Program-made: the position numbers and the translations under genes | Shown here: in pieces, positions 15,517 to 60,237 of the stretch | How positions within the stretch are numbered: position 1 is the first letter of the stretch | Layout: every line of letters begins with the position of its first letter | From: Chthonomonadales bacterium | GTDB lineage: Bacteria; Armatimonadota; Chthonomonadetes; Chthonomonadales; CAJBBX01 | Assembly: GCA_037443035.1 (NCBI GenBank) | Contig: JBBIPC010000004.1 | Location: 121,602-185,601, forward strand | DNA: 64,000 nt | Direction of reading: 5' to 3' | The notes under the pieces: generated by a model | What the model saw: the letters and a program-made list of their open reading frames with translations, nothing else | Databases searched by the model: none | Told to the model about the DNA's origin: nothing

Positions 15517-15689
15517 CTTCGTGTCCTTCCTCAGTCCGCAGGAGAATCGCCATGCCTGAAGTGCATTTCGAACCGTTTTCTTCCCATACGCCCAATGCTC
15601 CTGCCGCCGTGCCTGGCGCGCCACATCACCGATCCGACGGCATGACGGACCCCATGTTGCCATGCATATCACATCACCCGGCACAATAC

Positions 15690-15718
15690 TTGACAAAGAC
15701 CACAACGGCTGTTATGAT
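15690..15718 (+). promoter_or_regulatory. Near-consensus sigma70 promoter for the pilin-like gene array
   Basis: TTGACA (15690-15695), 17-nt spacer, TATGAT (15713-15718), with extended -10 TG at 15710-15711. Confidence 0.8.
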
Positions 15719-15829
15719 ACTGCTAACGAGCATCCTGCCTGGCAGACCGCGATCCTCCCGTTCTGCAACATCGTGGCTGCTGGTCGGCGGGCATACGCGA
15801 TGCAACGTCCAACAAAGGAGATGCGACGC

Positions 15830-16645
15830 ATGCGTCGGAGAAGTCCAATAGGCTTCACCCTCATCGAGCTGCTCGTGGTGATCGCGATCATCGCGATCCT
15901 GGCAGCCATCCTGTTCCCGGTCTTCGCCAGGGCACGCGAGCAGGCGCGGAAGACTGTCTGTCTATCGAATCTCAAACAGATTGGCCTCGCCGCGCTCATG
16001 TACGTTCAGGACTACGACGAGCAGTTTCCCTGGCTCATGCAAGATGGACGGACCAACAACGAGAGTACCGGCTACAGCACCGGCCTGCCTACCGGACCGC
16101 CGCTGTGGAGCGTGGATCTCAATAACAAGCGCGGACTGTTCATGGAGTACGCTTTCGAGTCGTACGTGAAGAACTTCGGCCTCTTCGGCTGTCCCACGTT
16201 GCGTCCCGATCCCGTGGTTATGGCACCGGACGGGCGGGTGGCCAATCAGTTCGGATCCTACGGCTATGCATTCGGCGGCGTGGGGCCGGTACCGTCGCCC
16301 CGCTACGACAGAATACCATTGGAGATCTTCGTCCGGTTCGCTGCGTTGAACATGCCGCCCCTGGACGTCCTCGGACCGGAGTACAAGACCAATAACCCCC
16401 AGGATTTCTACATCGCAGGCCAGCCTCAGGCAGTGTGCAACACGCCCGCCCAGTCCGTCATCGCGTTCTGCAACTCCTACGGAGCGCATGCAGGGGTCAC
16501 GGACGACCAGGTGGTACCGCCTCCCTACGGAAGCGGTACCTCGGCAGGTGCGACACTCGCGGTCATGGTAGATGGTCATGCCAAGTACGCAAGCGGGAAT
16601 TTCATTGATCTTGTGAAGATGGTCATGCATCCCATGACCCGGTAG
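15830..16645 (+). CDS. Prepilin-type N-methylation / DUF1559 (H-X9-DG) protein 1
   Basis: [51 protein letters not shown]-terminal VDGHAK. RBS AAAGGAG; start 15830 (or 15821). Confidence 0.9.
15854..15925 (+). repeat. 72-nt constant region of the pilin-like genes (other copies start at 16932, 18080 and 26830)
   Basis: All four copies encode the identical 24 aa [24 protein letters not shown]. Copies 1-3 share the exact 26-mer GCGATCCTGGCAGCCATCCTGTTCCC. Confidence 0.85.
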
Positions 16646-16655
16646 GAGGGCTCCG

Positions 16656-16835
16656 GTGCTCAAACAGGAGATCAATCCGGTGGTAGCGATCGTCGTAATC
16701 GTTGTCGTCTTGATCGTTGCCGGCGTCTGGGTTTGGACTCGAGCTGCCGGGCGCACCTTCACCAAAGACTCGGTACGCGGTATACAGTTCGATATCTCCA
16801 AGGGGAAGGGATTGCCTGCCCCAACAGGGAAATGA
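16656..16835 (+). CDS. Small single-TM protein, 59 aa (MLKQEINPVVAIVVIVVVLIVAGVWVWTRAAGRTFTKDSVRGIQFDISKGKGLPAPTGK); not in the ORF track
   Basis: RBS AGGAGG overlaps the stop of gene 1; GTG at 16656; ~19-residue hydrophobic helix; TGA at 16833-16835. Confidence 0.75.
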   Translation: MLKQEINPVVAIVVIVVVLIVAGVWVWTRAAGRTFTKDSVRGIQFDISKGKGLPAPTGK

Positions 16836-16853
16836 CACGTAGGTCGTCATTCC

Positions 16854-16882
16854 GGTGACCATGCGCTATACGCGCGGTCACC
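16854..16882 (+). other. Intergenic stem-loop
   Basis: GGTGACC...GGTCACC arms with inner TGCG/CGCG pairing around a CTATA loop; no U-tract. Confidence 0.4.
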
Positions 16883-16910
16883 AGCTACTCGAAGAGAAGG
16901 GACAAGAGCA

Positions 16911-17720
16911 ATGCGTCACACAAGCCGAGCATTCACGCTCATCGAGCTGCTCGTGGTGATCGCCATCATTGCGATCCTGGCAGCCATCCTGTTCCCCGTT
17001 TTCGCCCAGGCGCGAGAGAAGGCTCGAAGCATCTCGTGTCTGAGCAATCTGAAACAAGCGGCTCTCGCCACGCTCATGTACGTCCAGGACTATGACGAGA
17101 CGTTCCCCATGAGCCTGGCACCATTCCCGGCTGCTACGCCAGAGTATGCTGCTGCCCCGTGTATCACCTCTTTCTACGACAGGGTCAGCCCCTATCAGAA
17201 GAATGCCGATATCATGCGCTGTCCCTCGAAGCCCACGGCGTGTGACCTCCCTGCTGGGTTTCTCCGCCAGGCGGGACTAGGCATCAAGCCTCTCTGCGCG
17301 TCAACGCCGCCGCTCCGGTACATCTCCTACAACTTCAACTACGCGGTGATTGACGACGGGACGCCATCCCGACCGGTCAAGAAGCTCGCCGACATTCCGT
17401 TCCCGGTGATGAACTCCCTCATCTCGGATGGTGTTCCCACGGAGCCCGGCGGGATCTGCGGCTTGTTCAACTCACCGGTTGACGCAAGGCATACTCTCAC
17501 GGTCAACTGCTCGTTCGTGGATGGACATTCGAAGCCAGTCCATGCGAAGATCGCCGTGGACGGGTCGGGCGTCCCGTACACGTGCAGCAGCATTGACGGA
17601 CAGACCCTGCAGATCTTTCTTGTGACGGACGATGGTCCATACGTCAATCGAGCAGAGCTGTGGGGTGTTGCGTGCCAGCGGGCCGATGGGACGTGGTACC
17701 GCGCCCAGCGCTGCAACTAA
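16911..17720 (+). CDS. Prepilin-type N-methylation / DUF1559 (H-X9-DG) protein 2
   Basis: A|FTLIELL..., [20 protein letters not shown], canonical [14 protein letters not shown]. Confidence 0.9.
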
Positions 17721-17748
17721 CGAGTAGCCCCGTGTTCGGAGGAAGGTC

Positions 17749-17916
17749 ATGGCGGACCTAGCGAAGCGCCCAGTCCTCGTGGTCGTGGTGGTCGTTGTCC
17801 TGATTGCGGCGCTTGCGTTCGCCTGGCGACAGTATAGGGCGATGACCGGCGTGACTCAGGAGAACTCCATTCAGCTTACGCCAGATCAGATGAGGGAAGC
17901 GCTCCGCCGGGATTAG
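17749..17916 (+). CDS. Small single-TM protein, 55 aa ([55 protein letters not shown]); not in the ORF track
   Basis: RBS GGAGG at 17738-17742, ATG 17749, Pro followed by a Val-rich TM helix and WR, TAG at 17914-17916. Confidence 0.75.
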
Positions 17917-17995
17917 CGACAAGTCGGTACCTGGGCACATGCGAGAGACATCCGTGCGTGCCCGGGAAAACAGACTCGTTACACGGACCAGTACG

Positions 17996-18028
17996 CGTGG
18001 CCGCCGGCGAAGGGTGCCGGCGGTGCGC
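17996..18028 (+). other. Intergenic GC-rich stem-loop before pilin-like gene 3
   Basis: GCCGCCGGC-gaagggt-GCCGGCGGT with flanking GCGT/GCGC pairing. Confidence 0.4.
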
Positions 18029-18058
18029 AAGAGGATCGGACAACACAGGAGGTTCGCA

Positions 18059-18760
18059 ATGTTATCACGCAGACACGGGTTCACGCTCATCGAGCTGCTC
18101 GTCGTGATCGCCATCATCGCGATCCTGGCAGCCATCCTGTTCCCCGTCTTCGCTCAGGCACGTGAGAAGGCACGGCAGACTGCGTGCCTCAGCAATGTGA
18201 AACAGCTCGGCACGGCTAGTGCCATGTACGCGCAGGACTATGACGAGAAGTTCCCCTACTTCCAGTGGTCGGCCGACGGCCTCCACCACGGGGAGATGTT
18301 CTGCTACGTGCTGCAGCCGTACATCAAGAACAACGGCATCTTGCGGTGTCCGAGCGACGGCGACATCAACGACATGTGGTGGTGGGACGGCCGGGACAGC
18401 AACCGCCCCAGCGTTCCGCTTCCGCCCGGCGGTCTCTCCTACGGAGCCAGTGAAGTCCTCCACTGGGGAACGAAGCTGGCGCGCATTCCCCAGCCGGCCA
18501 TCACCTTCTGGTTATCCGACGCTCAGGCGGCGTTGGTGCCGGACTGGCACTGGTGGCCCTGCCGTGTCATTGCAGCGCATGACAACCAGTACAACGCTCA
18601 TAACGTGGGAGTCAACGTGACGTTCGCGGACTTCCACTCGAAGTGGTACAGCAACAAGGGCCTCTGGGGCGCTTACCTGCAGGGCACGCTGCTCATCGAG
18701 CCGACGGCAACGGGACCGCGCTACACCGAACCCAACGGCGGCTGCGTAATCCCGAACTAA
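18059..18760 (+). CDS. Prepilin-type N-methylation / DUF1559 protein 3 (H-X9-DF variant)
   Basis: ATG 18059 after [14 protein letters not shown]..., YAQDYDE, LQPYIKN...[18 protein letters not shown]. Confidence 0.9.
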
Positions 18761-18785
18761 GCAGGGACATAGGGACGTACGGAGC

Positions 18786-18819
18786 GAGCGGGGCTCCACG
18801 ATGGGGTGGAGCCCCGCTC
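18786..18819 (+). terminator. Strong hairpin closing the pilin-like array
   Basis: Perfect 14-bp inverted repeat GAGCGGGGCTCCAC / GTGGAGCCCCGCTC with a 6-nt loop; only a weak U-tail. Confidence 0.65.
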
Positions 18820-18983
18820 ATGTCTGTAGCACGGTCGCAGGCAGGTTGAAGGGTATAGTTATTCGGAGCATGATGGAGCCTCGGACGTCCCGCAGGGGGT
18901 TGTTTCTATTGGTTTTGAAGCTCGGCGCAGCGTATGGGAGTTCGCGCCCTCCTTCGTCAATGCCGCCCAGCCAGGCAAACTGA

Positions 18984-19706
18984 ATGCTTCGTGGTATCCT
19001 CTCACGGCTGCGCAAAGGGAACTCTGCCACCGAGTCTCTGGCCTCGGATCAGGCACGGTCAGACGGCGGTCCATCTCAGAACAAGTTCACATCGTCTGCT
19101 ATCGGCATAGTTTCCAATTACCACGACACGACAGTGCGGGTAGCTTTGTTCCAGTACCTGCGAATCCAGGGCGCGCGGAAGCTTGTGTATAGCGGCCCTC
19201 TTGCAGTCCTGAATGAACCTGGCGAGCTGTGGAGACTCATTCAGTCCGGCGACGTCTTGTGGGTCTATGGCAAACCCGAGCGCCCACGCCTGGCACCAGA
19301 AGTTGGCCTGCTCCCAAGTGGCCCTGAGCAGATCGAGGTCAATGGCGTGCTCCTACGTCACTTCGCCAAGTCTCCCGTGGACGGCTCTGCAATCCGGTTC
19401 GGTCAGCTCCAGTGGCCGCCGCCCGGCGCCAATCAGCAGGAAACCGTAGAGGCAACGGCGTCAGAGACGGAGAACAGGATCATCGTCATAGGAAGCGGCC
19501 TGGAGTACGAGCGGTGGTCCTTCTACGCGCGGACAAACCGATGGGAGCTCGTGGAGCAGATCATGCCGGGCTACGCCGACAGCCCGGTAGTCACTATCGA
19601 ACTACCAGCGGATGAGCGCGCCGTCATCGTCCATCCCACCAGCAGCAACTCGTATTGCTCGATACTCGACCCCGAGAGGAACGTGCTTACGCTCTTCATG
19701 CTCTAG
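18984..19706 (+). CDS. Hypothetical protein; probable calcineurin-like metallophosphoesterase fold with degenerate metal ligands
   Basis: Motif order IGIVSNYHD, LVYSGPL, VLWVYGKPE, LLRHFAKSP, IIVIGSGL, VIVHPTS, YCSILD mirrors the YfcE-type order DxH, GD, GNHD, H, GHTH, NPGS, YAILD. Confidence 0.55.
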   Translation: MLRGILSRLRKGNSATESLASDQARSDGGPSQNKFTSSAIGIVSNYHDTTVRVALFQYLRIQGARKLVYSGPLAVLNEPGELWRLIQSGDVLWVYGKPERPRLAPEVGLLPSGPEQIEVNGVLLRHFAKSPVDGSAIRFGQLQWPPPGANQQETVEATASETENRIIVIGSGLEYERWSFYARTNRWELVEQIMPGYADSPVVTIELPADERAVIVHPTSSNSYCSILDPERNVLTLFML

Positions 19707-19911
19707 GCGTACTGCCGCTGCTGTCATCGCTTCCATGGTCCTCGCCTGCACCCGGACCCGGGCATTCACCTTGCAACTTGCGGAAGGGACGCTCGGACGA
19801 CGGTCGGCAGTTGCTTGCCGCCCACTCAGAGTTCTCGGTCACTGCCGCATCGCAGGAGAGCCAGGATGCACTATCGAAGTCTCCCTCCAACGCACTTCAC
19901 GGAGGCCGAAC

Positions 19912-22900
19912 GTGTTATGCCTTTGCCTTGCGGCTCTGTTCGCACCGGCAGCGCCTACGCCCGATAGTAGCAGTAGCGCATGGAATCGTTTCCACGGCGC
20001 GCTCTTGGCAGACGGGGGCGTGGTACGCTGCCACTCGCAACCGATTATCGCAGACGGAAGGATCCGGTTTCCGGATGACCTCGGGACGGGCGCGGACCTC
20101 CTCGGAGCTACTCCGTCGTCAGGTGCTGGCGATACCGTCACGCTCGTCAAGGGCCGATGGGAAGGTCGACGCGCCGTCCGGCTCGATGCTCAACCCCTTA
20201 GAGCACCTGCGTGCGTGCAACCTGGGCAACCTTTCTCCGTTGAAATGTGGTTTCGGAAAAACGGGGCCGGCGTCCACCGAGGCAACGACAATGCCACGAA
20301 CGGGACACTCATCTCGGAGGGCAACGGGTACTGGGATGGATGGCGGATCACCACCAGCTACCCGGAGGGAACGTTTGGCTTCGAAATCGGTAGGCCCCAG
20401 CCTGCCCGCTCCGCAGGTCTCTTCGGCTGCGGTCCGCTGCCCGACGGCGTCTGGCATCATGTTGCGGCCACGTGGGACGGCAAGACCATGCGCCTCTACC
20501 TGAACGGCATCCTCGCCGGTTCGCACTCGTACTCTGGCGGCTACACACCAGGTGATGTACTGCGTGTCGGCTACGCAGACGCAGGCTGGGGTTCCGTGAA
20601 GCTCGACGTTGATTGCGTCATCCTCTGGCGCAGGGCGCTTTCCTCTGTCGAGGTGCTGCGATCTGCGTTGTACTACGTCAGTGTGCCGAACGAGCAGTCG
20701 AGCCGACTCGCGCGTGCCGGCGAGCTCCTGCACGGCGGCCGTCCGGCCGAGGCAGCTCGGCTGTGCGAAGCCGTCATCCAGACGCCGCGTGTCGCTGCCG
20801 ACGTTAGAGCACTCGCCATGATCTGCCTGGCGGATTGTCGCCGACGACTCAGCGACGTGGGTGGTGCCGCGAGAGCACTAGCCGTAGCGACCCAGAGTGG
20901 TGTGTCTTACCACCTGCGCCGTACGGCGCTCAGCCGATTGCTCGCCTTCGCTCCATCACCCCAGGACGTGCTGCCGGAACCCGCTCTACGAGCTTGGGAG
21001 AGGACTCCGCTGCTGGATCCTCGGGAACGCTGGACTCTGCGCTTGGCGCTGATGCGCCGCGCGATGGCGAGTGGGTCGGCCGCTACCACAAGCCGGCTTG
21101 TGACCCAGATGCTAGAGGACCCTGACATGGATGCTGCAGCGAAGTTCGAGATCCGGCTGATGCTCGCCCACGTGTACCGACGCAGCAAGCAGTACGTCAA
21201 GGCACGAAAGGAATACGAGGCTATTGCGGCCGACGAGCAGGCACCACCGGCATTCAGGCAGTACGCCCGAATGCTCGTACTCAGAACCCTCCTCCAGGCG
21301 GAGGAGACCGCTGAAGCCAGGCGCGTTTGCCAATCCATGCTAGCAGACGTGGAAGCGCCGCTGGCGTCCCGTTACGAGGCGCAACTGGCCCTCCAGCTCA
21401 TCCAGCATCGCAGGAAGAGCGCTGCCTCGCGGAGAGGCATCGCACTCGTCCCATTACGCACCACGACCGTCCGTACGGTGGCACCGAGGATCGAGATCCA
21501 CGTCGCTCCATCAGGCTCGGACCGCAACCCCGGCACACGCCAGAAACCATTGGCTTCGTGGCTCCGGGCCCTGGCGGTGATCCGCAGGCTGAAAGCCCAG
21601 GGTGCCCTGCCGAGAGGCGGTCTGGCGGTGACCTTCCATGCTGGTGTGTATCCCGTGTCCACGGCCGTTACTATTACCACCGCAGAGGCAGGCACATCCT
21701 CAGCGCCTGTCGTGTTCCGAGCCGCGCCCGGGGAGAAAGTCGTTTTTCGCGGCGGCGTACGTCTCCGTACGTTCCAGCCCGTACGGGACCCAGCGCTTCT
21801 GTCCAGAATCCGTCCCGACGTCCGCCAACACATCCTCGAACTGGATCTCCGAGCAGCAGGCATAACCGACCCCGGACGCCTCAGCCCGCGAGGCGTCGGA
21901 AGCGAGCCCAGACCGTGTCCCGAACTGTACTGGAACGGGCACCCACTGACGCTCGCTCGCTGGCCGGATGCCGGATGGGCCTCCACAGCACGCATTGTGC
22001 AGGAACGGAACGAGCATGGCGGCTTCACATTCGAATACGAAGGCGAGCGTCCATCGCACTGGGCTGGCGAGTCGAATGGCTGGTTGTTCGGCTACTTCGG
22101 CTGGCTCTGGGCGGACCATGGTGTCAAGCTGGCCTCTGTGGATACGACTTCGCATCAGCTCCTTACCGCACATCCCAGTAGTTACGCGCCAAGGCAGGGC
22201 ATGCCCTGGTTCGCCTACAACATCCTCGCTGAGCTCGACAGACCAGGCGAGTGGTACTACGATGAAGACAACAGCCGCATCCTCGTCTATCCACCCACCG
22301 ATCCATCGCGGGCCGTTGTCGAGTACCCCACGCTCGATACACCGTTCGTCATTGTGGAGGGTGCCAGTCACGTGCGCATGGAGGGATTGGTCTTCGATCT
22401 GGGACGGTGGAACGGCATCGAAGTGAGGAACTCATCCAACATCCTCATCGCGGGCTGCACCGTCCAGCGATTGCGCGGAACCGCCGTGGTTATCGATGGC
22501 GGACGCAACTGTGGCGTCTTCGGCTGTGAGTTGGCCACGCTTGGCAGGAACGGCACGTGGGTCCGCGGCGGCGACCGCAAGACGCTCCAGCCCGCTGGCC
22601 ACTTTGTCGAAAACTGCCACATCCATGATTTCTCGAGGTGGGATCGCACCTACACGCCTGCCGCGTACGTCGAGGGTGTCGGCATACGCATCGCGCACAA
22701 TCTTATCCACGACTCACCCGGTCATGCTATGCGGATCGAGGGCAATGACCACCTCATCGAGTTCAACGAAGTTCACCATGTCGTTACCGAGACGGATGAT
22801 CAGGGCGCCGTGGACATGTGGTTCAATCCGACGTACCGTGGTGTCGTCATACGCCACAACTTCTTCCATCATATTGGAGGTGGCGGCGACGACCGCATGC

Positions 22901-23469
22901 GTGCTGGCGTACGACTGGATGACGCCATCTGTGGCGTCCTCATCTACGGGAATGTGTTCTGGAAGGCGTCCCAGGGTCTGTTTGGGGGTGTGCAGATACA
23001 CGGCGGTAAGGAAAACGAAGTCGTGAACAACCTCTTCGTAGACTGCAAGTACGCCGTGAGCTTCTCACGCTGGGGTCCACAACGCTGGAACGAAACCATC
23101 CAGAGCGCTGCGGTCCGCAAGTTCACCACCGAGGACGTGGATATCACCAGTCCGCCCTACAGCACCCGCTATCCCGCACTCGCTCATCTATCGGAACGAC
23201 CAGACGTCAATCGGATATGGGGGAACATGGCGGTTGGCTGCGGTGACTTCCTGACGCGTGACGGGGGGTCTCAAGAGACAGTGGACAATCTCATCGCGTT
23301 AGACGATCCGGGCTTCGTTGATAGAAACCGAGGGTCGTTTGCCTTGCCCTTGGACTCTCCTGTATACGGCAGGTCAGGCTTCCTGCCGCTCCCCCTCTCC
23401 ATGATCGGCCGCTACCCCCATCCCTTGTCTGTACCGGCGAACAGAGAAGCATCCAGGAGATTACGATGA
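19912..23469 (+). CDS. Large secreted protein: LamG/concanavalin-like domain + TPR-like helices + right-handed parallel beta-helix (putative glycan-active enzyme)
   Basis: GTG 19912 after GGAGG gives a signal-like N-terminus. LamG: FSVEMWF...WHHVAATWDG..RLYLNG. Beta-helix: IHVAPSGSDRNPGT..KPL, LARWP, ELD.PGEWYYD, NHIHD-type repeats. Confidence 0.75.
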   Translation: MLCLCLAALFAPAAPTPDSSSSAWNRFHGALLADGGVVRCHSQPIIADGRIRFPDDLGTGADLLGATPSSGAGDTVTLVKGRWEGRRAVRLDAQPLRAPACVQPGQPFSVEMWFRKNGAGVHRGNDNATNGTLISEGNGYWDGWRITTSYPEGTFGFEIGRPQPARSAGLFGCGPLPDGVWHHVAATWDGKTMRLYLNGILAGSHSYSGGYTPGDVLRVGYADAGWGSVKLDVDCVILWRRALSSVEVLRSALYYVSVPNEQSSRLARAGELLHGGRPAEAARLCEAVIQTPRVAADVRALAMICLADCRRRLSDVGGAARALAVATQSGVSYHLRRTALSRLLAFAPSPQDVLPEPALRAWERTPLLDPRERWTLRLALMRRAMASGSAATTSRLVTQMLEDPDMDAAAKFEIRLMLAHVYRRSKQYVKARKEYEAIAADEQAPPAFRQYARMLVLRTLLQAEETAEARRVCQSMLADVEAPLASRYEAQLALQLIQHRRKSAASRRGIALVPLRTTTVRTVAPRIEIHVAPSGSDRNPGTRQKPLASWLRALAVIRRLKAQGALPRGGLAVTFHAGVYPVSTAVTITTAEAGTSSAPVVFRAAPGEKVVFRGGVRLRTFQPVRDPALLSRIRPDVRQHILELDLRAAGITDPGRLSPRGVGSEPRPCPELYWNGHPLTLARWPDAGWASTARIVQERNEHGGFTFEYEGERPSHWAGESNGWLFGYFGWLWADHGVKLASVDTTSHQLLTAHPSSYAPRQGMPWFAYNILAELDRPGEWYYDEDNSRILVYPPTDPSRAVVEYPTLDTPFVIVEGASHVRMEGLVFDLGRWNGIEVRNSSNILIAGCTVQRLRGTAVVIDGGRNCGVFGCELATLGRNGTWVRGGDRKTLQPAGHFVENCHIHDFSRWDRTYTPAAYVEGVGIRIAHNLIHDSPGHAMRIEGNDHLIEFNEVHHVVTETDDQGAVDMWFNPTYRGVVIRHNFFHHIGGGGDDRMRAGVRLDDAICGVLIYGNVFWKASQGLFGGVQIHGGKENEVVNNLFVDCKYAVSFSRWGPQRWNETIQSAAVRKFTTEDVDITSPPYSTRYPALAHLSERPDVNRIWGNMAVGCGDFLTRDGGSQETVDNLIALDDPGFVDRNRGSFALPLDSPVYGRSGFLPLPLSMIGRYPHPLSVPANREASRRLR

Positions 23470-25175
23470 ATCCACCACCGCCTCCTCCGCCCATCTACAC
23501 CTACACCATCGCCCAGGATGGAACTGCACGCTCGTACGACGAGGCCCTGGCGGTGGCATGTCTGCAGGGTCTCATCAACCGTCGGGCCCCAGTCCTCTAC
23601 GTGCTCTCACGTGCGAACAGCCGCCCGCAATACTGGCTCGACCGCTTTACCCAACCCGGTCAGTGGCTTCACGGGCGGCCCATCGTGCCCCTCTCCGACT
23701 TGGACGCCATTATCAAACTGGCCGGCAAGCGCGTCAAAGGCGCCATCATCTGGGATCCCGGCGTCCCCGCAACGGTGAATGCAGCGACAACGATGGCAGG
23801 CATCATGGACGCCGTGGTGCTCTCTCCGGAGATGTCCGAAGAACACCTACAAAGCTGGAACCTGCCCGTGCTTGCCGATCTTCGCAGCAAGTTCAGTGGC
23901 AGAGAGACCGGCAGCGCCAAGAACGACGTGGTGCGCTGGTCCATCCGAGAGCACCTTGCCAGAGGACGGTGTTCCTCTCGCCTCCTCTGCCTGTACGAGG
24001 ACTCGTTCTCCACACGCCCCCGTGGTGACATCGGCTATGTCGTGACGCGAGACTGGGCGGTCAAGAACCGCGCTTTCACCTTCGATCTCTCGCCGTGGGG
24101 TGACGAGAAGCCAGGAGACGATCCGGATCAGCAGCTTGGCACGGACCTCGCGACCTACAAGATGGTACTCGAAGAGACGCTTCGGCAGTCGGGTGGCGAA
24201 CACATGACGGAGCTGGCGGGGTTCTTCGCTTTCGCCAAGTACAGCAATGTCCCTGGCCATGCGAGCCGCCATGACCCAGTGCCCACAGAATGGGAGACCG
24301 TGTGGCTCATCTCTCCCTACAACGTCTACCAGAACACCGTCGCAAGCGACTGCTTCAACCAGTCCTTCCACTGTCACGCGCCACGGAAACCGCTACACCA
24401 GAAACGGCCGGAGCCCACTAGGATGCTCGAGCGGAAGAACTACGTATGCATCCTCATGGCAGACTACGACTCGGCAACGCCCCTTTACGACTTCCTGCCG
24501 AACCACTGGGACGACCCGCAACGTGGCTCGTTGCCTCTTTGCTGGGGGATCGATCCCAACCTGGTGGAGACGTATCCCGACATCATACGATATGTCTACG
24601 AAACAGCGAGCGCTAAGGACTTCTTTGGTGCTGATGCCAGCGCCGCAGGTTACATGAACCCCAACCGCGTGCGTCCGGAGTACTTGCCCTTGTTCATCCG
24701 GCACAACCGCAGATTCTATCGCGAGGCGGACATGTCGCTCTCCCCCATGGTACTAGACTGGGATCAGCCGACGCCCGCGGTCAAGGATGCCTTCTCCCGA
24801 TTCTCGCCAGATGGCTTCGCGACCATCGTCATGGATCTCCACGGCACAGGAGGCCGGTTGCCCGAACCGCAAGTGTGGAAAGGAATGCCCATCACGGAGT
24901 TGATCAACGAGGCATGCAATTTCGCCGGCGTGGAACGAACCGCGGAGATCATGGACGCCGCCATGACACGGCGCGGTACCGAGCCACCAAGCTTCCACTT
25001 CTTCCGGATCGTCTGGACCTCGCCTTCCCAGGTTGCTGCAACCCTCGACGCGCTCAGGCGCCGTCGTCCGGACTTGAAGATCGAGGTTGTTGACCCTTAT
25101 ACCTTCTTCCGCCTCCTGAAGCAGCATCTGTTGGCGACAGCTGCTACGAACGCTCCGCGAGTGCGTCGGCGCTGA
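23466..25175 (+). CDS. GxGYxYP-family putative glycoside hydrolase
   Basis: LQGLINR..P.LY, IIWDP, N.ATT.AG, N.SFH, MADYDS, RGSLPLCWGI, motif variant SAAGYMNP; ATGA overlap with the upstream gene. Confidence 0.72.
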   Translation: MNPPPPPPPIYTYTIAQDGTARSYDEALAVACLQGLINRRAPVLYVLSRANSRPQYWLDRFTQPGQWLHGRPIVPLSDLDAIIKLAGKRVKGAIIWDPGVPATVNAATTMAGIMDAVVLSPEMSEEHLQSWNLPVLADLRSKFSGRETGSAKNDVVRWSIREHLARGRCSSRLLCLYEDSFSTRPRGDIGYVVTRDWAVKNRAFTFDLSPWGDEKPGDDPDQQLGTDLATYKMVLEETLRQSGGEHMTELAGFFAFAKYSNVPGHASRHDPVPTEWETVWLISPYNVYQNTVASDCFNQSFHCHAPRKPLHQKRPEPTRMLERKNYVCILMADYDSATPLYDFLPNHWDDPQRGSLPLCWGIDPNLVETYPDIIRYVYETASAKDFFGADASAAGYMNPNRVRPEYLPLFIRHNRRFYREADMSLSPMVLDWDQPTPAVKDAFSRFSPDGFATIVMDLHGTGGRLPEPQVWKGMPITELINEACNFAGVERTAEIMDAAMTRRGTEPPSFHFFRIVWTSPSQVAATLDALRRRRPDLKIEVVDPYTFFRLLKQHLLATAATNAPRVRRR

Positions 25176-26437: not shown

Positions 26438-26467
26438 TTGACATGGTGTATCGGAAGGCGCTAGACT
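26438..26467 (+). promoter_or_regulatory. sigma70-type promoter upstream of the cobalamin riboswitch
   Basis: TTGACA (26438-26443), 18-nt spacer, TAGACT (26462-26467). Confidence 0.6.
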
Positions 26468-26485
26468 GATTACTACAATCGAATA

Positions 26486-26636
26486 CGGTGCAGGGACCGT
26501 GCGCAGTTAGTCGCACGGTCTGGGGGAAGTCCGGTGTGAGGCCGGCGCAGTCCCGCTACGGTATGTGCCTTCGATGAGGCATGAGCCCGAATGCCCACCT
26601 GCATCGCGTCACGCAAGCCCTTCGCGAGAAAGGGTG
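26486..26636 (+). ncRNA. Cobalamin (B12) riboswitch
   Basis: Core GGGAAgtCCGGTGtgAGgCCGGcgcagtCCCGCtACGGT; B12-box-like GAGCCCGAATGCCC; outer stem CGGTGCAGG/CCTGCATCG; hairpin GACCGTGCG/CGCACGGTC; downstream CCCTT-cgcgaga-AAGGG hairpin whose loop can kiss the TCCCGC loop. BtuF-like genes lie downstream. Confidence 0.88.
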
Positions 26637-26781
26637 TGATGCAGCCTCGTTCCTACCGGTTACCGGCTTAGCACCAGGAGGTAGCAGACACACCATCCGC
26701 CAAGGATGGTGTTCTTGTTACAGGGGCGCAACAGACTTCCTCTCGCGATGGTGCGCAACCCACAAGGAGGGGTCCAGAGAA

Positions 26782-27549
26782 ATGCGCTCCATCAACACAC
26801 TGGTAAGGCCGCCGGAGACGCGGCACGGTTTCACGCTCATCGAGCTGCTCGTCGTCATCGCGATCATCGCCATACTGGCGGCGATACTGTTCCCTGTGTT
26901 CTCTCAAGCCCGGGAGAAGGCGCGCCAGGCGTCCTGTTCCTCGAACCTGAAGCAGCTCGGCCTGGCCACGCTCATGTACCTTCAGGATTACGACGAGACC
27001 TACCCGCTCTACCAATACGCCGACTGCCAGGGTTTCGTCTGCTATCAGTACTGGTTTGGGCTGCGCGTAGGAACAACGTGGGACAAGACACGTGGCCTTT
27101 TGTACCCATATATGAAGAACCATCAGATCCAGAAGTGTCCTAGTTTCTCCGCGGTGCCGCGCCTTGGTGACGGCAACGGTTACGGCTACAACTGGGGATA
27201 TCTCGGTTCCGACTACTACATCAGCTTCAACTGGCCTCCGCTGAATCCGGCATCGGAAGCGTCGCTGTCCAGCCCGGCCTCCAAGATTCTTTTCGCCGAC
27301 GCAGGTTTCGTCAACGTGCCCTGGTACGGTGGGAACGGAGAGCTAATCGAGACACCCGGCATCGATCCTCCGTCCATGTGGTGGGGTAACCCAACGGTGG
27401 ATTTCCGTCACGTAGATAACCGAAAGACTATTGACAGCGCCACCTTCACCGTGACCCATCATGGTCTTGCCAACGCAACATTCGCCGATGGTCACGTGAA
27501 GGCCCTGAAGCAGTCGGCCGTCACTGACGAGATGTTCACCCGCAACTGA
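26782..27549 (+). CDS. Prepilin-type N-methylation / DUF1559 (H-X9-DG) protein 4, downstream of the B12 riboswitch
   Basis: ATG 26782 after [15 protein letters not shown]..., [40 protein letters not shown]. Confidence 0.9.
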
Positions 27550-27550
27550 G

Positions 27551-28387
27551 ATGACGCCATCGGTTCGCGTGTTCTGCGATGCGCTGGGCGGAACGGTGGA
27601 AATACCTACGCGTCCCCGGCGCATCGTGAGCTTCGTCTCGGGTCTCACGGAAGCCATCTGCGTCATGGGCTTCGCCGAACGGCTTGCTGGCGTCAGCGCC
27701 TACTGCCATCGTTACGTGCCCGAGCTGTCGGCACCCGTCGTCGGTGACTACCTAACGGCAGATGAGGTTGCGCTGGAGTCGATTCAACCAGACCTGGTAT
27801 TGGTGACAACCGGCGTCCAGCGCAGCCTCGGCAGGCGTCTGCGGAGCGTCGGTCTGCCTGTTTTCGCATTTCCGCTGCCTTCCACGCTGTACGGTATCCT
27901 CGAGAATGTCGTCTTGCTTGGTGGTCTGCTAGGTGAGCCTGATGCGGCTCGAGATCTGACGAGGCGGTGGTTGCGGCAGCTCGACGATGTGCGCCATCAG
28001 GCGACCGGTCGGGAGCTTCGCGTCTACCCCGAGTTGTGGTTCGGCCCGCACGTACGTATTCCAGGGGGCCTCTCGTTCATTAGTGATATCATCCACTACG
28101 CGGGTGGCACGAATGTGTACGGCTCGGTACCGACTGCCTACCTCAAGCTCGACACCGAGGACGTTCCTTGGCGGGCCCCAGACGTGTGGCTCCTTTTCTC
28201 GGAGCCTGAGTATCCCGTGGATGCCGATCTTCTCCGTGCGCAACGAGGCTGGGACACACGCCTGCCGACCATGCGCCTGATACAGGCTTCCGTACGGCCT
28301 GCTCAGAATGTTATTCATGATGGGCCGTCCATGATGCAGGCGGTCCAGTGGCTTTCCGCATGCCTCGCCGGAGGTGAGCTCCAATGA
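27551..28387 (+). CDS. BtuF-like helical-backbone metal/cobalamin-binding protein, no evident signal peptide
   Basis: D.LG..V.IP.RPRRIVS...LTE, LAGVSAYC, PDLVL, FISDII..AGG.N, GPS. Confidence 0.8.
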   Translation: MTPSVRVFCDALGGTVEIPTRPRRIVSFVSGLTEAICVMGFAERLAGVSAYCHRYVPELSAPVVGDYLTADEVALESIQPDLVLVTTGVQRSLGRRLRSVGLPVFAFPLPSTLYGILENVVLLGGLLGEPDAARDLTRRWLRQLDDVRHQATGRELRVYPELWFGPHVRIPGGLSFISDIIHYAGGTNVYGSVPTAYLKLDTEDVPWRAPDVWLLFSEPEYPVDADLLRAQRGWDTRLPTMRLIQASVRPAQNVIHDGPSMMQAVQWLSACLAGGELQ

Positions 28388-29265
28388 GCGGTCTGATCGC
28401 TGTACAGCGTGGGTCTGTCGCAGCGGTGTTGCTCGCCGTCAGCGCCGCGGCGTCCGCGACTCCCCTCTCGGCCGTGGATGGAAGAGACGTCCGCGTCACT
28501 CTGCCCGGACCACCCAAGCGCATCGTCTCGCTGTCTCCGGCAGTTACGGAGACCCTCTTTGCCATTGGTGCAGGACGTCGCGTGGTCGGAGTGACGAAAT
28601 ACTGCGACTATCCGGCCGAAGCGCGGCGCCTGCCTAAGATCGGCGACTACAACACGAGCATCGAGAAAGTCATGGCCATACATCCCGACCTGATCGTCGC
28701 CGATGTGGAAGCCAACCGACGCGCCATCGCAGATCTGACTAGGCAAACCAGCTTGAAGGGGAAAGTGTTCGCATTGCGGCAGAGAAGCTTCGCCGAGCTG
28801 TTCAGCGCTATAGGAAGTCTCGGCCGCATAACGGGTTGTGAACCTGGCGCAGTCAGCGTGGTCAATCGTATTCGTGGCACGTTGCTTGCCGTCAAGCAAC
28901 GCGTCCAACGAGCACGCACCGAGCCGCGCGTACTGTTCGTTGTGCAGACGCAACCTCTCTGGGTGGCCGGCGGCAGCACGTTTATCAGCGAGATGATCGA
29001 GGCGGCAGGAGGGATGAACATAGGTCGCAAAGCCGGCAGTGGGTTCCGATCGCTGGGTATCGAACAGCTCATCGCCCTCGATCCGGAGGTCATCCTGACA
29101 ACCCACGCTTCGCCCGAAGAACTCCAGCACCGGCCGGGCTGGGCGGCGGTGACAGCTGTGCGGACCCGGCGGGTCTACGTCGTCGGCTTCGAAGCCGTGC
29201 GCCCATGTCCACGCCTGGGCGAAGCTGTGCGCCGGATCGCTGCTCTGCTACATCCGGAGCGTTGA
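28384..29265 (+). CDS. btuF: Cobalamin ABC transporter periplasmic binding protein (BtuF family)
   Basis: Signal peptide ending in ASA; RIVSLSPAVTETLFAIG, VGVTKYCDYP, STFISEMIEAAGG.N, EQLIALDPEVI, RP.PRL. Confidence 0.82.
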   Translation: MSGLIAVQRGSVAAVLLAVSAAASATPLSAVDGRDVRVTLPGPPKRIVSLSPAVTETLFAIGAGRRVVGVTKYCDYPAEARRLPKIGDYNTSIEKVMAIHPDLIVADVEANRRAIADLTRQTSLKGKVFALRQRSFAELFSAIGSLGRITGCEPGAVSVVNRIRGTLLAVKQRVQRARTEPRVLFVVQTQPLWVAGGSTFISEMIEAAGGMNIGRKAGSGFRSLGIEQLIALDPEVILTTHASPEELQHRPGWAAVTAVRTRRVYVVGFEAVRPCPRLGEAVRRIAALLHPER

Positions 29266-58371: not shown

Positions 58372-60237
58372 CTAGAAGACGTGCCCGATACTGAAGTGTG
58401 TTCGCGCCCCCTCGCGTCCGAAACCTTGGTCGATCCGAATCGGACCGATGGGCGTCGTCACGCGGAGACCAAGGCCGAACCCAACCGAAGGGCTGAAGCC
58501 TGCGTGCTGCACGAAGTTGGCGAACGTCACTGCGGAGTATGGTCCGCCCCACGCATCGCCCACATCCACGAACAGCACACCCGTCAGCGCCTGAGCCAGG
58601 GGCGCTCGCAGTTCCACGGATGCCAGGAACATGTTCTTGCCCCAGAAGCGATCCTCGTTGTAGCCACGGAGTGTTTCGGCGCCGCCCATAAAGTACTGTT
58701 CGAAGAATGGGACTGTTCCCCCCGTCATGCCCAGCGACAGTCGCGTTGCCACAGTCGTCACCCGGTCGGTAGCCTTCTTGCGACGTCCACGAACTGTGAA
58801 GTACCTGCGTGCATCCACCTGCACCTTCTGGAAGGTCACAGATCCTTCCACTACAGGAGCGGTACCCGTTGAACCGAGAACCGGCTTGAGGTCGGCCTGG
58901 CCGATATCCACACTGTAAAGCTCGTATCCGCCCGACGACGGGTCGAGATTGACGTCCCGAGTGTTGTGCGTGAGCCGAACGCTCGCGACGCCGATGGGTC
59001 CTTTCTGCAGGGCCGCAGCGTCGTTCGGATTGAGGTTCAGCGAGGGTAGGTTCACGTTGTCGTACCGCAGCCCAACCGACCCGCGATAGCTCTCCCCGAA
59101 TGGTCGGCTCAGCGTGACCTGGCCGCCCGTGTGCATCTCGTAGTAGTCGTTACTCGTCTCGTCCACAGTGCCTGTCGTGCTGTAGATCCGTTGCGCGAAC
59201 CTGTACACCGTCTTGTCGTAGGCACTGACAGACAGCGACGTGTTCTTCGAATCGAGCCATGGCTCTGTGAAGCCGACTTCCACGCTGTTCCGATTCGCGA
59301 AGCCACCAGTATCCCACCGAAGGCTGATGGCCTGGCCGCGGCCCTGGAAGTTGCTCTCGACGATCTCGGCGCCACCCACCAGGCTGTTGCGACTGCTGTA
59401 GCCAATAAACACCGAGGCATTCCCCGTACGCTTCTCCTCGATGTTCAGCGTGATATCCACAAGCCCCGGCGACTTCGGGATGATCGCGGGAGAGATGTCA
59501 GCGAACAGGTCTGTGTTGATGATCCGGTAGTAGTCTCGCGTGAACACCTCCGAGTTGTAGTACTCGCCTTTCTTGAGTTTCATTTCCCGGGTCACTACGT
59601 ACGGCCGTGTCTTCTTCAAGCCGGTGATCTTCACCTCATCCACCTTGGCCACAATGATGGGGATCTCGAGGATGCCGTTGGGCATGCTCACATCGCTGGA
59701 CACGATGGCCATGTACCCTTTCGACCGGTAATACTCCTGAATGGTGGTGGCATCCGTGCGTAGGATGCCCATATTCAGGACGAGACCTTCCTTCGTCTTC
59801 ATGAGGTCTCTGATGACCTTCGCCGGAATGGGGCCGGAGCCTGTGATGCTGATACCTTTGACGAGGTCGTTTTCTTCCACCTCGATGGTCACCTGCGCAC
59901 CGCTACTGTCAGCCGCGGCGACGATGCGCACTGCTTCGTCGGGATCATCAACGCGGTTCGCCCCGAAAAGCTGCGTCTGGAGAAGCCGCTGCTTTGCACG
60001 ATCGAGCGCTTGTTGGTTGATCGGATCCCCAACCTTGAGACCGGAGGCGCTGATGATAGCCTCACTGCTCAGGTTCTTGTTACCCTTGACCACGATGGAC
60101 CTAATGATCGGCTCCGGTGTCTGCCCCATCACTGCCGCTGGTAGAGTGACACCAGCAACCACCATGACACCAGCGACCACCGCCGTGCCAACTGCTACGA
60201 TGAGCTTCAAGCGGTTCTCTCCTTCCCGGGTAGTCAT
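58372..60237 (-). CDS. bamA: Omp85/BamA outer-membrane protein assembly factor (about 3 POTRA domains)
   Basis: POTRA repeats (I.V.GN, I.ITG), EE...G, N..GRGQ, TEPW, GG...LRGY, G.GLR..TPIGPIR.D, terminal FSIGHVF. Confidence 0.92.
   Translation of the reverse strand: MTTREGENRLKLIVAVGTAVVAGVMVVAGVTLPAAVMGQTPEPIIRSIVVKGNKNLSSEAIISASGLKVGDPINQQALDRAKQRLLQTQLFGANRVDDPDEAVRIVAAADSSGAQVTIEVEENDLVKGISITGSGPIPAKVIRDLMKTKEGLVLNMGILRTDATTIQEYYRSKGYMAIVSSDVSMPNGILEIPIIVAKVDEVKITGLKKTRPYVVTREMKLKKGEYYNSEVFTRDYYRIINTDLFADISPAIIPKSPGLVDITLNIEEKRTGNASVFIGYSSRNSLVGGAEIVESNFQGRGQAISLRWDTGGFANRNSVEVGFTEPWLDSKNTSLSVSAYDKTVYRFAQRIYSTTGTVDETSNDYYEMHTGGQVTLSRPFGESYRGSVGLRYDNVNLPSLNLNPNDAAALQKGPIGVASVRLTHNTRDVNLDPSSGGYELYSVDIGQADLKPVLGSTGTAPVVEGSVTFQKVQVDARRYFTVRGRRKKATDRVTTVATRLSLGMTGGTVPFFEQYFMGGAETLRGYNEDRFWGKNMFLASVELRAPLAQALTGVLFVDVGDAWGGPYSAVTFANFVQHAGFSPSVGFGLGLRVTTPIGPIRIDQGFGREGARTHFSIGHVF

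Follow-up and report, generated by a model that had tools for sequence, protein, structure and literature searches.

How does a diderm bacterium that depends on vitamin B12 carry it across the outer membrane when the first gene behind its cobalamin riboswitch encodes a pilin-like protein in the place where a receptor might be expected? This question is posed by positions 26438-29265 of a 64,000-nucleotide stretch of Chthonomonadales bacterium assembly GCA_037443035.1 (Armatimonadota; contig JBBIPC010000004.1, positions 121,602 to 185,601 of the forward strand; hereafter the window), in which a cobalamin riboswitch is followed by P0001, a pilin-like gene of the DUF1559 type, and by two BtuF-family genes, P0002 and P0003. 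Passage of B12 through an outer membrane is generally taken to require a TonB-dependent receptor. The data presented here indicate that P0001 very probably has a role in B12 acquisition and suggest that it likely takes over the outer step of uptake that BtuB performs in other bacteria. It probably binds a corrinoid directly, and the reading that we favor, with reasonable rather than high confidence, is that P0001 would be a pilin that captures corrinoids in concert with type IV filament machinery and supplies them to BtuFCD.

The host genome itself sets the problem. It is 3.76 Mb in size and 100% complete by markers, and we consider it that of a diderm because it contains Omp85/BamA (a single match, at approximately 58375-59352 of the window on the minus strand) and six secretin matches. 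Neither the TonB-dependent barrel (PF00593), nor the plug (PF07715), nor TonB_C (PF03544) was found in it, in searches that were each positive in three genomes expected to serve as controls, and the host is without a recognised outer-membrane B12 receptor. It does encode MetH and the B12-dependent ribonucleotide reductase NrdJ, and tblastn searches of the host with homologues from relatives recovered no MetE, NrdB, CobU, CobS, CobT, BtuR, CbiA, CbiB, CbiC or CbiD. Because the two B12-dependent enzymes are present while MetE, NrdB and the cob/cbi genes were not found, it is likely that this bacterium must import complete B12. For the inner membrane, we identified a single FecCD permease, best matched by BtuC models (C13:9732-10706; C denotes contigs of the host), and a single corrinoid-type, btuD-like ATP-binding cassette (ABC) ATPase (C1:~270990), both scoring below curated cut-offs. 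The initial annotation of this DNA had described a system with no BtuB, BtuC or BtuD, which is true of the operon and, for BtuB, agrees with the search of the whole genome, but single btuC- and btuD-like candidates lie elsewhere.

If P0001 serves B12 uptake, its association with the riboswitch should recur, a check that the initial annotation had proposed, and it does. The head region of P0001 matched 187 of 401 genomes of the phylum at E<=1e-10. We ran the cobalamin riboswitch model RF00174 on 137 phylum genomes that were chosen mostly for carrying a homologue (127 with a listed best match and 10 of the same order with a weak match or none, leaving out 58 other matching relatives) and obtained a match in 129. 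In 105 of the 127 genomes the best homologue lies 202-725 nucleotides behind RF00174, a fraction that rises to 54/57 for homologues at E<1e-40; once the count includes second paralogues, and operons that were located by starting at the riboswitch, the riboswitch-pilin pairing is present in 125/137 genomes. Among 51 riboswitches otherwise unexplained, 48 were read: many precede another pilin as the first to third gene, the remaining ones precede metE, ribonucleotide reductases, cob/cbi genes, btuF operons or PEP-CTERM genes, and none of the 48 precedes a recognised receptor. Outside the phylum, where the head alignment was too divergent, one divergent member used as the query yielded 78 loci; most bear Verrucomicrobiota titles, two are from Phycisphaeraceae, and some of the labels are doubtful. 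We scanned 60 of these, preferring those with the most upstream DNA, and in 51 a same-strand RF00174 match precedes the pilin by no more than 3.5 kb, usually with one or two secreted or PEP-CTERM-like genes standing between the two.

The riboswitch-linked pilins are also of one kind. All 113 of 113 fall in one clade together with one of the 44 other paralogues of the host (FastTree, SH-like support 97), and an earlier set comprising 77 of the 113 gave the same clade (IQ-TREE quick mode, SH-aLRT 97), the trees being neither rooted nor bootstrapped. Because many of these pilins were picked from the riboswitch side, the clade is not an artefact of similarity searching. Together, these data confirm that the pairing of riboswitch and pilin is real and not a product of chance.

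In part of the phylum, the slot behind the riboswitch does hold a BtuB-like receptor, and this allowed the two arrangements to be compared. Our comparison set consisted of 80 genomes without a strong P0001 homologue, nearly all receptor-positive, of which 77 have the riboswitch; eight weak or partial riboswitch matches were excluded from the reading. The riboswitch precedes a BtuB-like receptor in 36 of these genomes (33 assigned by coordinates and 3 by a best match to the BtuB model below its cut-off), a pilin in 38, both in 4, and neither, or unreadable DNA, in 10. The receptor and pilin arrangements thus mostly alternate, which supports the earlier proposal that the pilin-like protein occupies the receptor slot.

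A second vitamin provides a parallel. The sole thiamine pyrophosphate (TPP) riboswitch of the host, at C2:54196-54305, lies directly ahead of another DUF1559 gene (C2:53343-54188) and a thiN-like (thiamine-pyrophosphokinase-like) gene, the whole locus spanning C2:53343-54305 on the minus strand, outside the window (genome G000); thiN was confirmed by Pfam in three relatives. A pilin stands behind the TPP riboswitch at 24/30 loci from relatives and at 13/27 further loci of the phylum, and 34 of the 38 TPP-linked pilins form a clade of their own with a support of 99. Searches of 41 genomes returned no flavin mononucleotide riboswitch. Two vitamins, two clades and one slot are the strongest sign we have that these paralogues, of which the host encodes 45 including P0001, would differ by the ligand they serve.

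P0001 itself (26782-27549, plus strand; 255 residues) begins as a pilin does. Its class III leader comprises a basic stretch, a cleavage site at G16|F17, a glutamate at position +5 (E21) and a hydrophobic helix; it scores above the cut-offs of both N_methyl (34.9 bits) and TIGR02532 (36.1 bits), and the F, T, L and E of the leader are invariant in 72/72 aligned sequences. The match to DUF1559 (PF07596) is well above threshold at 49.4 bits (cut-off 23.3) and covers just positions 2-37 of 268, and that to the H-X9-DG domain TIGR04294 reaches 17.1 bits, below its cut-off of 19. In the alignment, the family histidine corresponds to H210, an insertion that parts the conserved FRH from DGH leaves 25 residues between H210 and DG, and the literal H-X9-DG in P0001 uses a different histidine. 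Of the designation of P0001 as a prepilin-type H-X9-DG gene, the prepilin leader and the DUF1559 N-terminus therefore stand, but membership of TIGR04294 does not.

Beyond the leader, residues conserved in the B12 clade comprise W91, G105, G133-Y-G-Y-N137, Y140, P197 and F208-R-H210, and positions that this clade keeps much more strictly than the host's other paralogues do include G105, G133, Y136, N137, Y140, F122, R209 and W91. Four aromatic motifs had been highlighted as a possible ligand site. All four are present in P0001, but WYGG and WWG are local features that the clade does not conserve, W181, Y182 and W200 being kept in 21%, 18% and 31%, respectively, of 112 riboswitch-linked pilins, and we rejected these two motifs as core ligand residues on that ground.

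An AlphaFold model of P0001 built on 72 sequences has a predicted local distance difference test score (pLDDT) of 93 and a predicted template-modelling score of 0.87, and consists of a 53-residue helix (2-54), approximately 100 residues of loops and short elements, and a C-terminal sheet that carries the DGH motif, with strands up to residue 228. Its best 15 structural matches are all type IV pilins or pseudopilins, led by 6XXD (Z 5.6, root-mean-square deviation 3.2, 120 aligned residues) and 4LW9 (Z 5.0); matches of this type cover both the helix and the C-terminal sheet, and the ComP structure 5HZ7 was matched at Z 4.5. P0001 is thus predicted to adopt the fold of a type IV pilin, enlarged by a sizeable insert. 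It has neither a barrel nor a plug domain, and so does not belong with BtuB or other TonB-dependent receptors. Compared on its own, the head (model pLDDT 91.5) matched no solved chain at Z>=2 and nothing in Foldseek at E<=0.001, and its profile matched no PDB sequence at E<=1; these negatives are evidence neither for a new fold nor for one that binds B12.

The leader upstream of P0001 combines a cobalamin aptamer with candidate parts of a B12-responsive switch. Its aptamer, a compact RF00174 match at 26475-26616 on the plus strand with its L5 loop region at 26549-26556, scores 49 bits (E 3.2e-9) against a gathering score of 31.5, spans the full model (1-189), and is the sole cobalamin riboswitch of the genome and the sole Rfam RNA of the window. 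The B12 riboswitch reported by the initial annotation is thereby upheld, though its span of 26486-26636 is shifted relative to the aptamer and takes in the P13 hairpin that follows it. This hairpin (26618-26634, plus strand, loop 26623-26629) is identical in 5/5 aligned leaders, and in the ligand-bound state its loop could form base pairs with L5; this L5-L13 pairing is one we presume from the sequence together with the architecture of riboswitches of this class. The promoter placed ahead of the riboswitch likewise has a counterpart, a sigma-70-type promoter-like site (TTGACA-18-TAGACT, 26438-26467, plus strand, 10/12 consensus matches); two such sites were found against 0.7 expected, which is weak evidence alone, and the upstream TTGACA is shared by 4/4 aligned relatives.

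Downstream of P13, a stretch at 26737-26747 (plus strand) contains CTCGCG (26742-26747), which is complementary to the P13 loop, overlaps a possible anti-Shine-Dalgarno stretch and is kept in 5/5 leaders; in unconstrained folding, its pairing with the P13 loop has a probability of 0.69-0.96 in four of the five. The Shine-Dalgarno-like sequence AAGGAGGGG lies at 26764-26772, also on the plus strand. Holding P13 fixed, which mimics ligand, raised pairing between anti-Shine-Dalgarno and Shine-Dalgarno from 0 to 0.41 here and from 0.16 to 0.69 in relative G399, with no rise in G199, G062 or G163. A terminator-like hairpin with an imperfect U tract (26690-26720, plus strand) is clear only here and in G163, and with two of five leaders we rejected transcription termination as the conserved output. 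The leader is likely an off-switch, acting via translation or transcription. In leaders L143-L155, which come from several families, the first ATG lies approximately 20 nucleotides past the aptamer and, if it is the true start, would give the pilin a long in-frame N-terminal extension.

The three genes behind the riboswitch are tightly packed, with the 1-nucleotide gap between P0001 and P0002 and the ATGA overlap between P0002 and P0003 just as first described. P0003 (28384-29265, plus strand) is a BtuF-like periplasmic binding protein with a signal-peptide-like N-terminus; its best match among solved structures is the vitamin B12-binding protein 5YSC (E 2e-23), with haem and iron binders close behind, and it scores under the NCBIfam BtuF cut-off (NF002894). 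P0002 (27551-28387, plus strand) belongs to the same family (Peripla_BP_2) and has no signal peptide, so that of the two BtuF proteins first proposed the family assignment holds for both, but a periplasmic location is not supported for P0002. P0002 is likely cytoplasmic and possibly binds corrinoid there. Its orthologue in G163, 60% identical and also without a signal peptide, is the sole one among the loci read, and none was found in the G199 operon. Further signal-less BtuF-like proteins occur in operons of relatives. In the database, close homologues (60-72% identity) carry the names of Armatimonadota of the family Chthonomonadaceae.

The components needed to assemble a pilin are encoded elsewhere in the genome, where the search suggested by the initial annotation was successful: PilD, PilB/GspE, PilT and secretins were all found. 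The one prepilin peptidase (PilD) lies inside a pilB-pilT-pilC cluster, and the host also has a gspE/F/G/K/D cluster, a third cluster of pilB-pilC-pilin-secretin and three more PilT, for a total of four. Three tandem secretin genes at C34:7281-11198, with no assembly ATPase within the 9 kb read, are candidates for a pore that the pilin paralogues would have in common.

Based on these components, the mechanism that we favor would run as follows. When B12 is scarce, the riboswitch would leave the operon on, and prepilin peptidase would cleave P0001 at G16|F17. A type IV filament machine encoded elsewhere, and common to the approximately 44 paralogues, would then build P0001 into a short pilus or pseudopilus through a secretin, where the insert of the pilin head would bind corrinoid via the clade-specific W91, G133-YGYN137, Y140 and F208-RH210. 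Retraction or disassembly would carry the ligand to periplasmic BtuF P0003, from which the orphan BtuC and BtuD would import it for MetH and NrdJ, and other paralogue clades, one of them tied to thiamine, would serve other nutrients likewise. We infer repression by B12, processing, corrinoid binding, assembly, secretin passage and hand-over to BtuF; that uptake via P0001 depends on filament and secretin is at best an even proposition.

Several observations weigh against this mechanism. TonB-dependent receptors are common in the phylum (256/401 genomes), which led us to reject their strict phylum-wide absence; among the 125 genomes with a pilin operon, 39 have no receptor match and 86 have at least one, none of them seen behind the riboswitch, and B12 could still enter those 86 through a receptor that is regulated in another way. 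Both arrangements coexist in G142, G333, G084 and G116, and the Fisher p of 2e-9 for their alternation overstates the case because the set is mainly receptor-positive and kin are not independent. A second riboswitch in G285 precedes, by eye, ExbB/ExbD-like genes at a contig end. Close homologues in family f11 (L113-L120) have no riboswitch match in 8/8 loci read, a more distant paralogue carrying the riboswitch in most of these genomes, and the host's own further member of the clade (L262, C3:209532-210383) has no cobalamin riboswitch. The f11 homologues sit in housekeeping-looking neighborhoods, and L262 lies between a dehydrogenase/phnE-like cluster and panB. On the structural side, Z-scores of 5-6 are middling, and Foldseek returned no match at E<=0.001 for the P0001 model. 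Finally, no filament-assembly gene was recognised in the pilin operons read, so that it is the leader and the fold that tie the pilin to a machine.

This last observation is also what one would expect if P0001 were an inner-membrane-anchored periplasmic sink or relay for corrinoids that uses its leader as an anchor and forms no filament, with B12 crossing the outer membrane by a porin, an open secretin or an unrecognised receptor. The 86/125 pilin genomes that retain some TonB-dependent receptor are compatible with such a sink, and in a planctomycete, proteins that combine N_methyl with SBP_bac_10 fractionate unlike plain pilins (PMC8567305). Nonetheless, the near-alternation is with BtuB, not with BtuF, and BtuF is often encoded beside the pilin, which makes a second periplasmic binder look redundant. 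The whole predicted pilin fold and the glutamate at +5 are moreover retained, and the host has no TonB system that we could find. We regard the sink as unlikely, though it survives better than any other rival.

The operon partners bring in a further possibility. Across the loci read, pilin operons contain BtuF, FecCD, ABC ATPase, CobU/CobT/CobS, BtuR, CbiA, DUF6580, DUF4465 and PEP-CTERM proteins as well as a diphthamide-synthase-like protein. One PEP-CTERM partner family is weakly similar to BtuH2 7BIZ (profile E 4e-4) and to 8BLW chain B (E 3e-6), which we take to be BtuG1. Among the 19 longest of the best 150 profile-search matches, moreover, the pilin is fused to other domains: P0231 is a DUF6580-pilin fusion, and P0166, P0217, P0244, P0260 and P0265 each combine, in one frame, a secreted domain, a PEP-CTERM-like anchor and then, after a basic linker, the prepilin motif and the pilin head. 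Some of these occur in several assemblies, P0217 having seven equal-length members from three sources, and P0244 alone gave no BtuH match. With such a layout, a polyprotein could be separated into its parts by prepilin peptidase, and we therefore infer that the leader is processed; the fusions are candidate polyproteins cut by that enzyme. L312:2244-4103 is a further natural pilin fusion. DUF4465 corresponds to BtuJ and 7BIZ to BtuH2, both B12 binders in Bacteroides (PMC13616437).

That the pilin so often shares a transcript or a reading frame with PEP-CTERM, BtuH-like and DUF4465 proteins would suit a P0001 that binds nothing itself and acts as an adaptor, displaying, exporting or retrieving these true binders or gating the secretin under B12 starvation. 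Set against this, tblastn of the host genome was negative for DUF4465, the BtuH-like family and the other PEP-CTERM family, and many loci consist of the pilin alone or of the pilin and a small ferredoxin- or UDG-like gene only, the latter arrangement being frequent in close relatives. The head also retains its clade-specific residues across very different partner sets, and an adaptor accordingly seems improbable.

Three features of these partners were observed besides. A UDG-superfamily gene (L035, L036, L038, L043, L045, L122) or a BFD-like [2Fe-2S] gene of approximately 75 residues (L036, L037, L042, L047, L048, L050-L052, L057) directly follows the B12 pilin in many genomes of the same order. 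A PEP-CTERM family of approximately 200 residues, A4, with the conserved pattern GYW...W...G(S)WDGW, recurs behind cobalamin riboswitches (L064, L070, L073, L093, L099, L101, L108, L109, L208, L209); it gave no useful PDB or Pfam match and is a candidate new B12 binder. In most Verrucomicrobiota loci, the gene immediately ahead of the pilin belongs to a secreted family of approximately 300 residues that has no Pfam match and is sometimes fused to a BtuH-like domain (L268, L274, L278, L281, L289, L290 and others).

Type IV pilins commonly act in adhesion, and P0001 might be a B12-repressed adhesin for B12 producers or for B12-rich particles or hosts, with no direct transport role. A type IV-like pilus does mediate glycan attachment in Akkermansiaceae (PMC13174399). 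Yet a small ligand that stays the same, rather than cell surfaces that vary, is what one conserved clade over two phyla and a second clade for TPP would lead one to expect, and the pilin alternates with BtuB-like receptors, making an adhesin very improbable. Chance adjacency of one among 45 paralogues to the riboswitch is refuted by the recurrence in 125/137 and 51/60 and by the single clade, and we give it practically no weight.

If P0001 is a corrinoid-capturing pilin, its paralogues invite a wider and more tentative proposal, to which we give somewhat less than even weight: DUF1559 pilins may be interchangeable, ligand-specific receptors on retractile type IV filaments that hand nutrients to periplasmic binders. 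Were this so, B12, thiamine and probably sugars and other nutrients would be fished through a secretin, a TonB-independent route of outer-membrane uptake would exist in Armatimonadota, Verrucomicrobiota and probably Planctomycetota, and the dozens of DUF1559 genes per bacterium would be explained. Within the window, three consecutive DUF1559-type pilin genes (15662-18760) lie upstream of genes for a laminin-G/beta-helix protein (19612-23469) and a GxGYxYP putative glycoside hydrolase (23466-25175); this glycan-locus-like setting (15662-25175) would fit sugar-specific pilin paralogues.

The significance of the locus is that no TonB-dependent receptor was found in this B12-dependent diderm and that, on the evidence, a pilin is the likely substitute. 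The locus also suggests what might be bound by members of a family whose function is not known and which has dozens of paralogues per genome, with the B12 and thiamine clades as ready reciprocal controls. We found no literature on the pairing of a DUF1559 or prepilin protein with a cobalamin riboswitch in a search that covered few subscription papers and no supplements, whose regulon tables could already include this gene.

Among known systems, BtuB-TonB with BtuFCD, of the E. coli type or in the btuB/G/H/J operons of Bacteroides (PMC13616437), has the same riboswitch class and the same first-gene slot, and its partners (BtuF, BtuC/D, BtuJ/DUF4465, BtuH-like proteins and salvage enzymes) are those of the pilin operons. 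In contrast to these systems, no barrel, plug or TonB was found here, and the slot holds a 255-residue prepilin-leader protein with a predicted pilin fold. Proteins of the DUF1559/SBP_bac_10 (PF07596) and TIGR04294 type share with P0001 the N_methyl leader, the DUF1559 N-terminal helix, the C-terminal DGH and a large paralogue set. P0001 differs in that it matches only 37/268 DUF1559 positions, scores under the TIGR04294 cut-off and belongs to a clade tied to B12. Published descriptions assign DUF1559 proteins no function (PMC10632474, PMC8567305), and Planctomycetales have 41 or more such genes per genome (PMC8567305), compared with 45 here. The MUL2 type IV-like pilus locus of Akkermansia is implicated in nutrient attachment and uptake in Verrucomicrobiota (PMC13174399); it is a machinery locus for a glycan substrate, unlike a riboswitch-controlled, vitamin-specific pilin.

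The route proposed for P0001 resembles that of ComP-type DNA uptake. In DNA-uptake type IV pili with a ligand-binding minor pilin such as Neisseria ComP, a pilin head binds an external ligand, which reaches a periplasmic binder when the pilus retracts through a secretin. P0001 differs in that its ligand would be a small cofactor rather than DNA, its head is much larger and its gene lies outside a pilus operon.

In its logic, the P0001 system is closest to the archaeal bindosome of Saccharolobus (Sulfolobus) solfataricus, in which binding proteins with class III leaders are encoded at substrate-regulated ABC-transporter loci (PMC3047682, PMC13705601). The two would also resemble each other in relying on one remote type IV filament machine, both have numerous paralogues that are alike at the N-terminus and differ at the C-terminus, and the P0001 clade has the genomic features that mark a bindosome-type system, namely a class III leader, a link to a nutrient, an ABC locus and machinery elsewhere. 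By contrast, the bindosome is archaeal, has no outer membrane or secretin, and binds sugars, whereas here the host is a diderm bacterium and the control is by vitamin riboswitches. The P0001 head, a predicted pilin fold with an insert that matches no solved chain, is likewise unlike bindosome proteins. Dependence on assembly has been shown for the bindosome, whereas for P0001 it is a proposal. If the filament route holds, P0001 would represent a bacterial counterpart of the archaeal bindosome, one that also crosses an outer membrane.

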